From Patescibacteria group bacterium (lineage in GTDB: Bacteria > Patescibacteriota > Patescibacteriia > UBA1558 > GWA2-36-10), in the NCBI GenBank assembly GCA_041665505.1, contig JBAYIR010000004.1, positions 6,797-70,796 on the forward strand: a DNA stretch of 64,000 bases. Reading direction: 5' to 3'. Shown here one piece after another: positions 23,578 through 56,257 of this stretch. The notes below the pieces were generated by a model, which saw nothing but the letters and a program-made list of their open reading frames with translations, did not search any database and was not told the DNA's origin. Position 1 is the stretch's first letter. The number at the start of each line of letters is the position of its first letter. Made by a program: the position numbers and the translations under genes.

Positions 23578-23607
23578 TTATATTTTTTTAATAGCAAATT
23601 AAATAAA

Positions 23608-23631
23608 CCGTCCTCAAGTGGCGGTTTTTTT
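23608..23631 (+). terminator. rho-independent terminator of rmuC (ccgtc ctcaagt ggcgg + T7)
   Basis: 5-bp stem (one G-U) followed by ttttttt. Confidence 0.4.
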
Positions 23632-23677
23632 GGGACGGCGGGATTGCCTGGTGGCAATCCCGCCGTCATGCTCTGTG

Positions 23678-24061
23678 CTACGCGTGGCAGAATTGAGCTG
23701 CCACCAGCCGACCCAGGCCATCACTGGCCCAGTTGATGCTGTGGGTTTCCCATTGCCATTGGAAGCCCCTCCGCATTACCAGATCATACATCATTGGGCT
23801 GGCTACTACCGCCACCGGATTGATGTTTAGTGGCCATTCATCACCTTCGCTATCTCCAGCAAATATGAGAGTAGCAATGCCGAGCAGTGTGCCCTTCGGC
23901 AAGTACTGGTTGACGCCACGCCAGGTGGCTCTTCCGTCATCCATTTGGAAGATAGCGATATCAAAGGGATAAATATTGTCCCTTGCGGTGTAAGTAGAAG
24001 TGATGTCTTCTTCCATTTGGAACCAGGGCAGCTGATTGATCTGGATATTCTGGGTGTTCAT
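23678..24061 (-). CDS. hypothetical protein encoded in GC-rich island A (start at second Met, preceded by GGAGGT SD)
   Basis: 127-aa ORF MNTQNIQINQLPWF...; GGAGG 5 nt upstream of the ATG; GC content far above the backbone; no family recognised. Confidence 0.4.
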   Translation of the reverse strand: MNTQNIQINQLPWFQMEEDITSTYTARDNIYPFDIAIFQMDDGRATWRGVNQYLPKGTLLGIATLIFAGDSEGDEWPLNINPVAVVASPMMYDLVMRRGFQWQWETHSINWASDGLGRLVAAQFCHA

Positions 24062-24355
24062 GACAACCTCCATCAGTTATCGCACTGATTGGGCGTGACA
24101 GGGTTGAACTGTCAGGGGGTGGATGCTGCTCGTAGCAAATTCAATGAGCAGCACATTAGTTTCCATTAGTTGAAAAATACTGTGCTACCCATTGATATTT
24201 AATGTGAAAGAGCTAGATTAATATAGAATTATAGCATATTTTGTTTATTTTGTCAATGTTTAGTAGTATATAGTAGCTAGTATAATATTAAAAAAGTATT
24301 GACTTTTTCAAGTTTAGCGGTTATAATGTAGCCGCTTTTTGTTTATTATAAATTT

Positions 24356-24700
24356 ATGCCAGTAGTCAAAAATGACAATAAAAACAAGGCTAATAATGAG
24401 TGGCTAAGACAAGGAATGATGATGTTTGCCGAAAGTACCGGCTGGATCGCTTTCCCAGTCATAGGAGCTCTGTTTTTAGGTCAATGGCTAGATGAAAGAC
24501 AAGGCACAGGGCAGTTATATTTTTTAAGTATTACAGCTCTAGCTTTTATACTTTCTTCTGTGGGTATAGGCATGACAGGCGTAAAGTATATGAATAGAAT
24601 TGAAAAAGATGAAGCTGGGAAGAAAAATAATAAATCAAATAGCTTAGACAAAACCACACAGGAGAAAAAACAAGAAAATGAGCCAAGAAACGATAAATAG
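24356..24700 (+). CDS. AtpZ/AtpI-like small membrane protein preceding the ATP synthase operon
   Basis: Position immediately upstream of atpB; two TM helices and a Lys-rich tail, as in ATP-synthase protein I families. Confidence 0.4.
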   Translation: MPVVKNDNKNKANNEWLRQGMMMFAESTGWIAFPVIGALFLGQWLDERQGTGQLYFLSITALAFILSSVGIGMTGVKYMNRIEKDEAGKKNNKSNSLDKTTQEKKQENEPRNDK

Positions 24701-25580
24701 CAATCAAAACAATATAGAAGATACTTCGCGCATAGTTGAAGAAATTTTGGGTGAAGACTTAAATCAGGAAGCTGGCGCTCATACAGCTGAAGGAGCTGAG
24801 CATGAGGAGCACGAGCATACTTTATTTGCCGAAACAGTTTTTCAGGTTGGTGATTTTCCAATCACCAATTCACTGCTGACATCTTGGGTAGCAGTTTTTT
24901 TAATTATTATTTTGTCATTGGTCATTCGAGCTAAAAATAGTCGCATCCCATCAGTTTTCCAAAGTTTTATGGAAATAATTATTGATGGCGCACTGGGTAT
25001 GATGGATTTAGTGACCAATGATAGAGCTAAAAGTAAAAAAGTATTTCCAGTTATATTTTCAATTTTTCTTTTTGTGCTTATCAACAACTGGTTGGGGTTG
25101 TTACCGGGTTTAGGCTCCATTACTTATAATGGAGTAGCCTTACTAAGAGGGGGTACAGCTGATTTAAATACCACATTAGCTTTAGGGTTGTTTTCCGTAG
25201 TATCGGCCAATATTTTTGGTATGCTGGTAGTCGGTGGTTGGAATTATTTTAATAAATTTGTAAACATAAAAGCATTAATAGAAATACCTGGTAAAATTAG
25301 GCACGAACCAACCATTGTTTTGGTTAATCCTATAACTTTTTTTGTAGGATTAATTGAGATAGTGTCAGAAGTGGCCAAAGTAGCTTCACTATCATTTAGG
25401 TTGTTTGGTAATATTTTTGCTGGGGAAGTATTGATTGCTTCTATTTCAGCTTTAGTGGCTTATGGTGTGCCGCTACCATTTATGTTTTTAGAAGTAATTG
25501 TCGGAATTATTCAGGCCTTGATATTTTCCATTCTGACTTTGGTTTATTATACTATTGCTTCAGTTGAGCATGAACATTAA
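24678..25580 (+). CDS. atpB: F-type ATP synthase Fo subunit a
   Basis: Signature RLFGNIFAGEVL and polytopic membrane profile. Confidence 0.85.
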   Translation: MSQETINSNQNNIEDTSRIVEEILGEDLNQEAGAHTAEGAEHEEHEHTLFAETVFQVGDFPITNSLLTSWVAVFLIIILSLVIRAKNSRIPSVFQSFMEIIIDGALGMMDLVTNDRAKSKKVFPVIFSIFLFVLINNWLGLLPGLGSITYNGVALLRGGTADLNTTLALGLFSVVSANIFGMLVVGGWNYFNKFVNIKALIEIPGKIRHEPTIVLVNPITFFVGLIEIVSEVAKVASLSFRLFGNIFAGEVLIASISALVAYGVPLPFMFLEVIVGIIQALIFSILTLVYYTIASVEHEH

Positions 25581-25814
25581 TCTCCTGTCATCCCGAGCGC
25601 AGTTGAGGGGTCTAGCTAGATTCCTGCCTGCCGGCAGGCAGGTCTCCACTTCGGTCGAAATGACAAGTGTCATTATTAATTAACAAAGATAATCATAGGC
25701 GACGTAAAATAATAAAAAAATTAACCCCGTTGAATGCTGCAAAGCAGCAGCGACAGAGTCGCTATTCAACAGGGGTAAAGATCGACCTATTATTATCAGA
25801 AAGGAAACAACAAT
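25581..25814 (+). ncRNA. highly structured GC-rich intergenic RNA element / atpE leader (multiple perfect palindromes and a three-stem junction)
   Basis: cctgcctgccggcaggcagg (20-nt palindrome), aatgacaagtgtcatt, and ccccgttgaat[gctgc aaa gcagc][agcgac aga gtcgct]attcaacagggg. Confidence 0.35.
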
Positions 25815-26027
25815 ATGGATCTAACATTAATTGCCAAAGCCGCTGCTATTGCTATCGGTGGTATTTCTCCAGCCTTAGCTATCGGCAAAATTGGTGCCAA
25901 AGCTATGGAATCAATTGGTAGAAATCCAGAATCAGCTGGCAAAATCTTAGTGCCTATGCTTTTGGTATCAGCTTTTGCTGAAGCTATTGCTATTTATTCA
26001 TTGATTATTGCTTTTTCAATCAAATAA
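25815..26027 (+). CDS. atpE: F-type ATP synthase Fo subunit c
   Basis: 70-aa proteolipid hairpin GRNPES...[10 protein letters not shown] with the carboxylate E. Confidence 0.85.
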
Positions 26028-26111
26028 TCGATTGTTTTGAGTGCTCTCTATATATGAGGGCACGACTAAGCAATTAATCTCTCGACATAGTTCGAGATAG
26101 AAGAAAATAAT

Positions 26112-55227: not shown

Positions 55228-55548
55228 TCAACGCAAACCTTTCCCGCGGGAAGGTCTGTTATGATGATTTAGTTTATTTAGCATCAATTTATAGCCACTC
55301 ATACCATTATTAAGCCATTTAGAAATACGAGCCACAGTAGTAGAACTTAGGCCAGTTTTTTGGACTATTTGAGTATAGGGAATATTTTTATCTAGCATTT
55401 GAGCAGCTTGCCAACGATTAGAAAATTCTGTGATTTCTGACTCTGTCAAAAGGTCACGCAAAAATAGTTTGGCTTCTTTTTGATTGTCTAAAGCTAATAT
55501 AGCATCAAATAGCTTAATTATTTTTTTATCGTATTTCATATTAATCAC
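55228..55548 (-). CDS. TrpR-like (YerC/YecD family) DNA-binding protein
   Basis: LTESEITEFSNRWQAAQMLDKNIPYTQIVQKTGLSSTTVARISKWL helix-turn-helix of the Trp-repressor-like family. Confidence 0.55.
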   Translation of the reverse strand: MINMKYDKKIIKLFDAILALDNQKEAKLFLRDLLTESEITEFSNRWQAAQMLDKNIPYTQIVQKTGLSSTTVARISKWLNNGMSGYKLMLNKLNHHNRPSRGKGLR

Positions 55549-55608
55549 TTTAGTTAAGTAAAGTATAGCATATAAAAAAAATATGTCAATATTTTTAAAA
55601 AAAGGAAA

Positions 55609-55633
55609 CCCGCCGCGTCAGACGCGGCGGGTT
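55609..55633 (-). terminator. rho-independent terminator of the island D two-gene unit (minus strand)
   Basis: acccgccgcg tcaga cgcggcgggt 10-bp stem followed on the minus strand by ttcctttttttaaaaa. Confidence 0.6.
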
Positions 55634-55658
55634 CAAACAGCGTGTCGTGGTCGATAGT

Positions 55659-55883
55659 TTAGCGACCACGCAAGCCAAGACGAGCTCTCTGTCGGAGCAG
55701 CTGCAGGTGAGCAAGGCGGGGATTGTTGGGCCGACTGACTGGTGGGCAGTCGCGACAGCGGAAAGGGTGAAGTACTGAGACGCTTTTGGTCTTAGGCTCT
55801 CCTTTCAAGACTGTCAAGCGACCCAAGCTGTCTTGACGGAATGTCCGCCTACAGCCCCCGATACACAGGAGTAGTGTGGGCAT
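55659..55883 (-). CDS. small Cys-containing, Arg-rich hypothetical protein (island D, gene 2; AGGAGG SD overlaps the upstream stop)
   Basis: 74 aa with CIGGC...CRDC; AGGAGG 5 nt before the ATG; GC-rich. Confidence 0.3.
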   Translation of the reverse strand: MPTLLLCIGGCRRTFRQDSLGRLTVLKGEPKTKSVSVLHPFRCRDCPPVSRPNNPRLAHLQLLRQRARLGLRGR

Positions 55884-55892
55884 GAAGACCTC

Positions 55893-56099
55893 CTAGGAAG
55901 TGAATCGTTGACGAGCCGAGGGAACACCGGCTAGCGTTTTGAGTTGTCTCCTGATGTCACAGTCGTTCAGACAGCCACTGGTGCGGCCGATAACTGTGGC
56001 GATAGCACTTAGTGGTGTAGAGGGATTAGCAATAGCGCCGATACATTGTTGGCAGTTTACCCGGGGGATTTTGGTCTGGGCGACCTTTATAGACTTCAT
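55893..56099 (-). CDS. small Cys-containing hypothetical protein (island D, gene 1; start at the Met preceded by GAAAGG SD)
   Basis: 68 aa with CQQC...GCLNDC; the ORF track starts earlier at 56195, but a sigma70-like promoter falls inside that extension. Confidence 0.3.
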   Translation of the reverse strand: MKSIKVAQTKIPRVNCQQCIGAIANPSTPLSAIATVIGRTSGCLNDCDIRRQLKTLAGVPSARQRFTS

Positions 56100-56150
56100 A
56101 TTAAGCCTTTCGGTTTTGGGTATTTTGTCGTCTCTTAGGTGCTTGCTTAT

Positions 56151-56179
56151 ATGGTAAAATTTACTGATAATTTTGTCAA
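56151..56179 (-). promoter_or_regulatory. candidate sigma70-type promoter for the island D unit (TTGACA-17 nt-TACCAT on the minus strand)
   Basis: Minus-strand ttgacaaaattatcagtaaattttaccat about 50 nt upstream of the SD/ATG at 56099. Confidence 0.3.
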
Positions 56180-56257
56180 CATTTATATTTGCCATATTTT
56201 AAGGCTTATGTTAAATTAGCTGTATTAAATTAATTTATTATTTATGGAGTTAAATAT

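Follow-up and report, generated by a model that had tools for sequence, protein, structure and literature searches.

The 64-kb stretch of a Patescibacteria group bacterium genome analysed here (assembly GCA_041665505.1, contig JBAYIR010000004.1, positions 6,797 to 70,796; 'the window' throughout) contains four short GC-rich islands, designated A to D, which are dispersed among the housekeeping genes of an AT-rich chromosome. The nearest species representatives are Candidatus Komeilibacteria metagenome-assembled genomes (MAGs; helicase 80-82% identical), and the genes of the window encode IleRS, RecO, TGT, pilins, a Clp-type ATPase, MetRS, TatD, RmuC, an F-type ATP synthase operon, a complex-I-like module, a UvrD/PD-(D/E)XK helicase, PheST, GyrB, NusG-L11-L1, an M17 peptidase, Pth, Der, LytR, a signal peptidase and HisRS. 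A scan in windows of 200 nt for a GC content exceeding the mean (0.351) by 0.12 or more returned four segments (A: 23541-24120, maximum 0.59; B: 39341-40060, 0.53; C: 43381-43780, 0.53; D: 55561-56140, 0.59), which exceed the threshold over 400-720 bp in a backbone of about 35% GC. Island GC content amounts to 0.50-0.59 (vs 0.35 in the backbone) and the GC content of third codon positions (GC3) to 0.51-0.60 (vs 0.27); three weaker peaks (0.49) all fall within long conserved genes. The scan bears out a preliminary description of this DNA, which had placed GC-rich islands near 23.6, 39.4, 43.4 and 55.6 kb, in intergenic gaps between housekeeping genes and with one or two small open reading frames (ORFs) apiece: the ORF of A encodes 127 aa on the minus strand, that of B 170 aa from a TTG at 39413 and that of C 95 aa, whereas D has two coupled minus-strand ORFs (D1, 68 aa; D2, 74 aa), and their neighbours are RmuC, the atp operon, PheST, GyrB, NusG-L11-L1, the M17 peptidase and tRNA synthetases. 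As had also been claimed, no sequence similarity was found among the four islands, and the window proteins include no transposase or integrase (nor a reverse transcriptase), the ORFs without Pfam match showing no sign of a recombinase; ARAGORN found no tRNA in the 64 kb. The features are as follows (loci of related genomes and metagenome contigs are labelled L or P; SD, Shine-Dalgarno site):

23607-23631, bidirectional: terminator of RmuC and island A; ACCGTC/GGCGGT hairpin, T7 on the plus strand, U-rich tail on the minus strand
23634-23667, minus: island A 3' hairpin; 15-bp GC stem without T tract, paired in the fold, largely kept in L002
23678-24061, minus: island A gene; orphan of 127 aa with a predicted beta-rich structure
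24062-24221, minus: island A 5' leader; three hairpins (minimum-free-energy fold); SD GGAGGT at 24066-24071
24228-24256, minus: island A promoter; TTGACA, 17 nt, TATAAT with TG (extended -10); 12/12 consensus, best in 23-43 kb
31421-31870, plus: type-1 Pro_CA_2 paralogue; AT-rich native composition, reference for island B; PF20393 at 29.9 bits (cut-off 30)
39246-39274, plus: island B promoter; TTGACT, 17 nt, TACAAT with TG; 10/12 match; follows the terminator of the upstream operon (39205-39233)
39413-39925, plus: type-2 Pro_CA_2 paralogue of island B; TTG start, 170 aa; SD AGGAGGT at 39400-39406
39991-40046, plus: island B 3' hairpins and T8 terminator; CTGCCC/GGGCAG at 39991-40008, then a 10-bp stem at 40010-40038 with T8
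43361-43382, plus: imperfect 22-bp inverted repeat around island C, left arm; 20/22 complementary to 43767-43788
43420-43707, plus: island C gene; 95-aa orphan; SD GGAGGT at 43410-43415; GC 0.51, GC3 0.59
43736-43788, plus: island C 3' hairpin and right repeat arm; 12-bp stem at 43736-43766, no adjacent T run
55606-55634, minus: island D intrinsic terminator; 13-bp stem with 9 GC pairs, T run; top score in a 43-63 kb scan
55659-55883, minus: island D gene 2 (D2); 74 aa, CxxxC...CxxC; SD AGGAGGT at 55888-55894 overlaps the D1 stop codon
55893-56099, minus: island D gene 1 (D1); 68 aa, Cys-rich, CxxC...CxxxC; SD GAAAGG at 56106-56111
56151-56179, minus: island D promoter; TTGACA, 17 nt, TACCAT; 10/12; region homologous in L168

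The islands are set apart by their expression signals as much as by their composition. On the two strands of the 64 kb taken together, GGAGGT with a spacer of 4 nt before ATG is found in exactly three places, and these are the starts of the longest ORFs of islands A and C and of D2; island B starts with AGGAGGT, 6 nt and TTG at 39413, and D1 with GAAAGG, 6 nt and ATG. Among 54 backbone genes a 4-base SD core at -20 to -4 precedes four (random expectation 8.5%) and a 5-base match none, so that the contrast between 4/4 islands and 0/54 backbone genes (Fisher p 2e-6) upholds the earlier view of AGGAGG-type sites in an SD-poor genome. Good sigma70-type promoters are predicted for A, B and D; for island C itself no promoter could be recognised, and it may be transcribed by read-through from the upstream operon. 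All four units end in a GC-rich hairpin, and the claim that each possesses a strong private terminator stands for B and D, which carry the canonical hairpin with T run, and falls for A, which shares its terminator with RmuC, and for C, which lacks the T run. The untranslated regions within the units are GC-rich (0.53-0.65) and the unit promoters AT-rich.

Judged by the ratio of non-synonymous to synonymous divergence (dN/dS; A 0.25, C 0.22, D1 0.34, D2 0.25), the island ORFs are real protein genes under purifying selection, the case for B resting on its Pfam match. Their relatives are few: no clear homologue outside the own slot was found for A and C among 5.8e9 clustered proteins or for D1 among 1.8e9 representatives, IMG/VR held no relatives of the islands, and PHROGs, PADLOC and NCBIfam gave no matches, Pfam contributing only PF20393 for island B. 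AlphaFold2 modelled A and C with low confidence, and a fold search for A was uninformative. At the RNA level, whole transcripts fold better than dinucleotide shuffles (z -7.1 for A, -8.9 for B, -5.3 for C and -4.3 for D), whereas under synonymous-codon shuffles the coding sequences of A, C, D1 and D2 (z -0.7 to -1.8) resemble backbone genes; the folding excess thus comes largely from terminal hairpins and leaders. The coding sequence of B (z -5.7) owes its deviation to a near-perfect 15-bp hairpin at 39455-39503, in its 5' part and just past the ATG start annotated by NCBI.

Island A lies between RmuC and the atp operon, a junction that we sampled in 80 metagenome contigs and in genome loci, and this slot is a hotspot of gene turnover. 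In about nine relatives (L164, L126, L089, L088, L005, L102, L111, L106 and L103) it is empty, comprising 68-134 bp with the atp promoter only, and in at least seven other contigs it holds unrelated, mostly GC-rich and mostly minus-strand genes, encoding proteins of 176 aa (L156), 80 aa (L087) and 127 aa (L098; apparent signal peptide), an alpha/beta hydrolase of 233 aa (L004/L091) and a family of 91-104 aa (L092), of which L095 (2249-3450) carries two paralogous tandem units, each with a promoter copy and a repeated 3' element. In L107 (4955-6627) the slot is occupied by a gene for a 466-aa secreted-looking protein with a C-terminal tail that by eye resembles those of the type IX secretion system (T9SS); in a contig of Patescibacteria-like character such a tail would come as a surprise and would suggest transfer between phyla. 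Several of the cargo genes carry AGGAGG or GAAAGG sites. Moreover, a 27-nt promoter motif (TTGACAAAATAGCTAAAATATGCTATA) is common to the units of the window, L004, L091, L092 and L095, the cargo of which is unrelated; the motif is absent from the empty slots and was found only in slot A, and either an early insertion brought the promoter with it or the genes behind the promoter have been exchanged.

The single homologue of the island A protein occupies the same slot of L002, a strain whose aligned flanks match those of the window at about 93% identity. Between the two copies the leader and the ends are 90-98% identical and the interior 55-78%; the synonymous divergence (dS) of the interior is 0.98 (flanks 0.30-0.35), its ratio of transitions to transversions 0.93 (43 and 46; flanks 2.3-4.2), and in-frame indels are present, a combination that points to a deeply diverged allele swapped in by recombination. 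Hypermutation was rejected on account of the indels, of the transition/transversion ratio near 1 and of the lack of a template repeat: neither a diversity-generating retroelement (DGR) nor a deaminase accords with indels, with substitutions of all types and with the absence of a second island A copy in the window, and a DGR is further disfavoured by the lack of a reverse transcriptase among the window proteins. The leader of about 150 nt, the last of whose three hairpins abuts the SD, is 94% identical to that of L002 (9 differences in 151 nt), the adjoining promoter and intergenic DNA being 62-75% identical, and may be an undescribed cis-regulatory leader. Beside the slot, the AtpI-like C-terminus and the N-terminus of ATP synthase subunit a (24356-24810) differ from L002 in indel-rich stretches of 15 aa and 10 aa, which appear as local hypervariable linkers in strains that are otherwise about 93% identical.

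Island B is an old resident, inherited in place. Its product is a probable metal-binding Pro_CA_2 relative, as suggested by a match to PF20393 (putative carbonic anhydrase; 34.1 bits, cut-off 30), a family annotated in all seven homologues, and by C-x-D (CMD) and H-x-x-C (HLQC) motifs that align by eye with the CVD and HWDC of type-1/type-2 relatives, the Arg of C-x-D-x-R being absent. In composition it departs from the type-1 paralogue of the same window (GC 0.50 and GC3 0.55 vs 0.31 and 0.21). The gene order in relatives is atpC, type-1 Pro_CA_2 (149 aa, AT-rich), type-2 Pro_CA_2 (170-206 aa, GC-rich) and helicase, and the pair, or the type-2 gene alone, was found upstream of the helicase in L007, L008, L010, L011, L012, L048, L169 and L171; type-2 orthologues thus persist in slot B of relatives whose helicase is only 64-70% identical. 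The type-2 genes (L048/L171, L169, L007, L008, L010, L011 and L012) have their own promoter, SD and GC hairpin, the SD being AGGAGG in 4 of the 6 lineages inspected and G-rich in L007 and L008, and their GC content lies 0.10-0.19 above that of the adjacent type-1 gene. Type-2 evolves much faster than type-1: identity to the window copy declines from 75% to 21% for type-2 (75%, 61% and about 23% for orthologues in the same slot) and from 81% to 68% for type-1. The type-2 gene is missing from L004 and L005, where it was probably lost. In L007 (9491-9947) the type-2 gene is followed by two extra GC-rich small ORFs, each with SD and hairpin and one of them encoding 73 aa with paired CxxC. In the window the type-1 gene and island B are separated by a 7.2-kb complex-I or group-4-hydrogenase-like module (31966-39154; NuoB-, NuoL/Mrp-, NuoH-, NuoK- and NuoM/N-like proteins and a fused NuoC-NuoD) of backbone GC content and strongly negative AT skew, which is absent from L004, L005, L169 and L171, where the genes that flank it are adjacent.

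Island C has only two homologues, L167 (93% identical) and P0023 (63%), both in the same slot. Hand-read alignments of occupied and empty slots showed it to be absent from 9/9 readable close relatives (L004-L012), in which the flanking 98-aa gene and the membrane-protein gene lie 20-80 bp apart, and we therefore regard it as a subclade-specific insertion of about 430 bp. Relative to L167 its dN/dS is 0.22 and its dS (0.18) is not above that of the flanks (0.19-0.37). The inverted repeat that bounds it is kept at 19/22 in L167 without compensatory change, and no target duplication accompanies it.

Island D, like B, is an old resident inherited in place, although only one relative (L168) is known for its slot. 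There the unit is present, the homologues of D1 and D2 adjoin the same M17 peptidase and the Cys motifs are kept; the D1 homologue (P0024) occupies the same slot with 54% identity (dN/dS 0.34; GC3 0.51/0.59), and D2 is 61% identical (dN/dS 0.25; dS 1.25; GC3 0.57/0.52). By their motifs both Cys-rich proteins may bind zinc, and the sequence of D2 suggests a zinc ribbon.

The persistence of B and D permits the age of the compositional signature to be appraised. The M17 peptidase flanking island D has diverged from that of L168 to saturation (dS 1.57), and D1 and D2, with dS of 1.25-1.38, lie near this value and therefore share the history of the flank, and yet their GC3 is 0.51-0.59 in both genomes (vs 0.26-0.28 in the flank). 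For island B, the substitutions on the window branch were polarised with L171 as outgroup: changes from AT to GC (18) balance those from GC to AT (17), also at third positions (10 vs 8), whereas relaxation to a GC3 of 0.27 predicts about 77% GC-to-AT changes (p=0.003). Furthermore, the slot A cargo family of L092 and L095 (genomes of 34-35% GC; dS of RmuC between the two 1.5) combines a GC3 of 0.64-0.91 with backbone-like first (GC1, 0.49-0.55) and second (GC2, 0.31-0.38) positions. This codon-position pattern, which reaches a GC3 of 0.83-0.91 in the 91-aa ORF of L092 (slot 5045-5959) and in L095, fits no ordinary genome composition. The GC excess is regional, mostly confined to silent sites and at or near equilibrium, and we argue from the balanced changes of B and the GC3 of D at saturated dS that the foreign look is maintained and is not the fading trace of a transfer. 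The SD goes with it: in 110 AT-rich related loci, GGAGG precedes 15/45 GC-rich and 63/1380 ordinary ORFs (p 3e-9, crude ORF calling), an approximately ten-fold enrichment. Patescibacteria relatives that are themselves GC-rich (loci of 45-60% GC) were considered as donors of the style, and with GGAGG on merely 12-14% of their ORFs they are not its obvious source.

Taken as a whole, these results lead us to consider it somewhat better than an even bet (a probability of roughly 55%) that the islands are autonomous, moron-like expression units for lineage-restricted small proteins. Each unit would comprise a sigma70-type promoter, a leader, a strong SD, one GC-rich ORF, or two as in D, and a hairpin that is likewise GC-rich. 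The units occupy a few permissive intergenic slots, the content of which turns over among Komeilibacteria-like genomes. The units would originate through rare illegitimate insertion beside terminators, would then be inherited in place, and could be spread or replaced by homologous recombination through the conserved flanks, a step suggested by the interior of island A (dS three times that of its flanks, transition/transversion ratio near 1). The SD would be mechanistically coupled to GC-richness: native genes would initiate on A/U-rich, unstructured leaders without SD, and, as a GC-rich leader and ORF could not initiate SD-free, only SD-bearing versions would be expressed and retained. The odds that the GC-rich state is held in situ appear to us evenly balanced; the force in question would act on the nucleic acid itself, either as selection on mRNA or as GC-biased conversion at recombining slots, and its main alternative is the repeated re-import of fresh GC-rich alleles. 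The repeated small-gene acquisition put forward in the preliminary description is accordingly retained for slots A (turnover) and C (subclade insertion), without the recency that it would imply for B and D; conversely, an ancient native feature, which had been named there as a refuting outcome, applies in part, to the old residents B and D.

Several points weigh against this account. The sample that speaks for compositional stationarity is small (one pair for D and 18 polarised third-position changes for B) and was evaluated by parsimony and by the Nei-Gojobori method (NG86) near saturation. The GC1, GC2 and GC3 of A, B and C resemble those of an ordinary 50%-GC genome and are compatible with a donor of this kind, and the only sign of age for C is its 63% homologue, compared as protein. 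The expression of the units is read from predicted signals, the 3' tail of the 16S rRNA lying outside the window, and the clade-wide GGAGG statistic includes near-duplicate genomes besides its crude ORF calls. Selection for RNA structure within the coding regions is not supported as a cause of the GC content, the synonymous shuffles being unremarkable except for the one hairpin in B.

A bolder formulation, which we advance as a tentative possibility, holds that the islands represent a second 'expression dialect', in which small lineage-restricted genes stand at a GC-rich equilibrium of their own and depend on the SD within an AT-rich, SD-free Komeilibacteria-like genome. New genes entering the few hotspots would be drawn into the GC-rich SD style, and the force behind this might be selection for transcripts that withstand AU-directed RNA decay or that ribosomes in a specialised state read, or else GC-biased conversion of an extreme, local kind at recombination slots.

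Classical recent horizontal acquisition, by which the islands would be fresh, not yet ameliorated imports from unsampled SD-using donors of about 50-55% GC, is in our judgement unlikely, even though it accounts for the codon-position GC of A, B and C (typical of a 50%-GC genome), for C and the slot A cargo being indels relative to the nearest species and for the allele history of island A being deeper than that of its flanks; the L107 cargo with its T9SS-like tail (by eye) would, in addition, point outside the phylum. It is at odds with B and D, which are still GC-rich in the same slots of relatives at saturated dS, with the missing GC-to-AT bias on the window branch of B, and with the searches reported above, in which no donor homologue was found (A and C in 5.8e9 clustered proteins; D1 in 1.8e9 representatives; any island in IMG/VR). 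The promoters, moreover, are native-style, AT-rich and common to differing cargo, and no donor genome fits the L092/L095 cargo, in which a GC3 of 0.83-0.91 accompanies backbone-like GC1 and GC2.

Far less probable is the family of mobile miniature cassettes that the preliminary description had offered as an alternative, MITE-like (miniature inverted-repeat transposable element) or integron-cassette-like and moved by a common mechanism supplied in trans. The 20/22 inverted repeat around C, the two tandem units of L095 with their own promoters and repeated 3' element, the additional GC-rich mini-ORFs in tandem in L007 and the repeated hits on slot A are what one would expect of such elements. 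The borders tell otherwise: apart from the inverted repeat of C, which shows no compensatory change in L167, the islands have no shared border motifs, direct repeats or target-site duplications, also when compared with empty sites, and no repeat is common to them or copied elsewhere in the window, in which each unit is single-copy. The hairpins are short perfect stems that by eye lack attC-type R'/R'' boxes, promoters are carried along, and no integrase or transposase was found in the 64 kb. Without common ends, repeats or a recombinase, we do not regard the islands as a mobile cassette family.

Structured RNA genes typically stand out as GC-rich intergenic regions in AT-rich genomes, and the good folding of the whole transcripts and the unusual conservation of the island A leader would suit structured non-coding RNAs with incidental ORFs. 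We nonetheless hold this explanation to be highly improbable, given the absence of any Rfam match in the islands at gathering score or at E<=1 and of any tRNA match, the dN/dS of 0.22-0.34, the in-frame indels and conserved Cys motifs, the Pfam match of B, the correctly spaced SDs and the unremarkable synonymous shuffles of the A, C, D1 and D2 coding sequences. An assembly or binning artefact, in which GC-rich fragments of other organisms had been spliced in, would explain sharp compositional boundaries only and is practically excluded, since the junctions are identical in the NCBI, ENA, JGI and Logan assemblies (the samples of which are not necessarily independent) and other samples (SRR22387796, JGI 3300004208, JGI 3300072015 and GCA_023246135) contain diverged orthologues of the units between the same flanking genes.

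Two further observations concern the backbone of the window. A 55-bp direct repeat (GGGAGCTCTGGCTAGTCGGCCGAGCGTTTGAACCTCGTAATAATAAATAATATGGCAAA) that includes the start codon lies ahead of both rplK (L11; 53681-53735) and rplA (L1; 54198-54252); it has no Rfam match and looks as if a GC-rich leader had been duplicated, perhaps as a mimic of the L1-type autoregulatory kind. Within the helicase gene, 42052-42152 gave a sub-threshold match to Rfam n00280 ('C. difficile sRNA included into helicase gene'; 41.5 bits vs a gathering score of 65, E 0.002), for which conservation of the coding sequence is the most likely reason.

Recent transfer is ordinarily read from a deviant GC content that is accompanied by foreign-looking signals, and in this lineage such a signature persists across saturated divergence, so that it would mislead island-finding and transfer-dating methods in these genomes of the candidate phyla radiation (CPR). 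If the maintenance is true, the units would constitute a small group of orphan genes, akin to a regulon, in an uncultured host-dependent lineage, the treatment of which probably differs at the level of mRNA or ribosome, and would offer a natural test case for how base composition is set at the level of the gene (selection on mRNA vs biased gene conversion). The RmuC-atp slot, for its part, provides a clean, recombinase-free hotspot for studying the entry of single genes into reduced genomes.

No earlier description of this pattern in Patescibacteria was found in the literature, and among known systems several share part of it. Integron cassettes are likewise small single-gene units at a defined site, sometimes in tandem (as in L095 and L007), but the present units lack attC (by eye), attI and IntI, have their own promoters and are dispersed over several slots. 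From MITEs and insertion sequence elements they differ in that only C has flanking inverted repeats, with no duplication and no multiple copies in the window, and from classical genomic islands in the lack of a tRNA and an integrase in the window and in a size of merely 0.4-0.7 kb. GC-biased gene conversion in recombining bacterial genes has effects of a few percent GC3 (PMC4450053). The GC3 excess described here similarly accompanies signs of recombination and affects silent and non-coding parts; it amounts, however, to 25-60 points, is confined to units of about 0.5 kb and includes C, which shows no extra sign of recombination. SD-blind lineages keep rare SD genes, such as rpsU in Flavobacteriia (PMC7797042, PMC9976891, PMC13000453). 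By analogy, the retention of a strong SD on a few specific genes would imply a special translational regime, although in the Bacteroidia it serves an autoregulatory loop of a ribosomal protein and in the Patescibacteria it is found on GC-rich orphan genes.

The chromosomal hotspots reportedly described by Oliveira, Touchon and Rocha in 2017, which lie between core genes and in which accessory genes are said to turn over by homologous recombination without mobility genes, resemble slot A, where the cargo varies between conserved flanks and the island A allele is older than these. Accessory DNA is usually AT-richer than the core, whereas the cargo of these slots consists of one or two tiny genes that are GC-richer than the core and carry an SD that core genes lack. 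The closest parallel is the phage moron of Juhala and Hendrix, in which one coding region, equipped with a promoter and a terminator and deviating in composition, separates genes that lie side by side in relatives (PMC4378225). The units described here are likewise self-contained modules of promoter, gene and hairpin (C without a recognisable promoter) and of deviant composition, and insertion between genes adjacent in relatives is seen for A and C, B being present in most relatives. They differ from morons in residing among the housekeeping operons of a bacterial (CPR) chromosome, with no PHROG or IMG/VR matches, and in that B and D are conserved residents whose composition is maintained and is not a mark of recent acquisition. 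On the best-supported account, what is new relative to known morons is thus a set of chromosomal hotspot units in which compositional deviance is maintained rather than transient.

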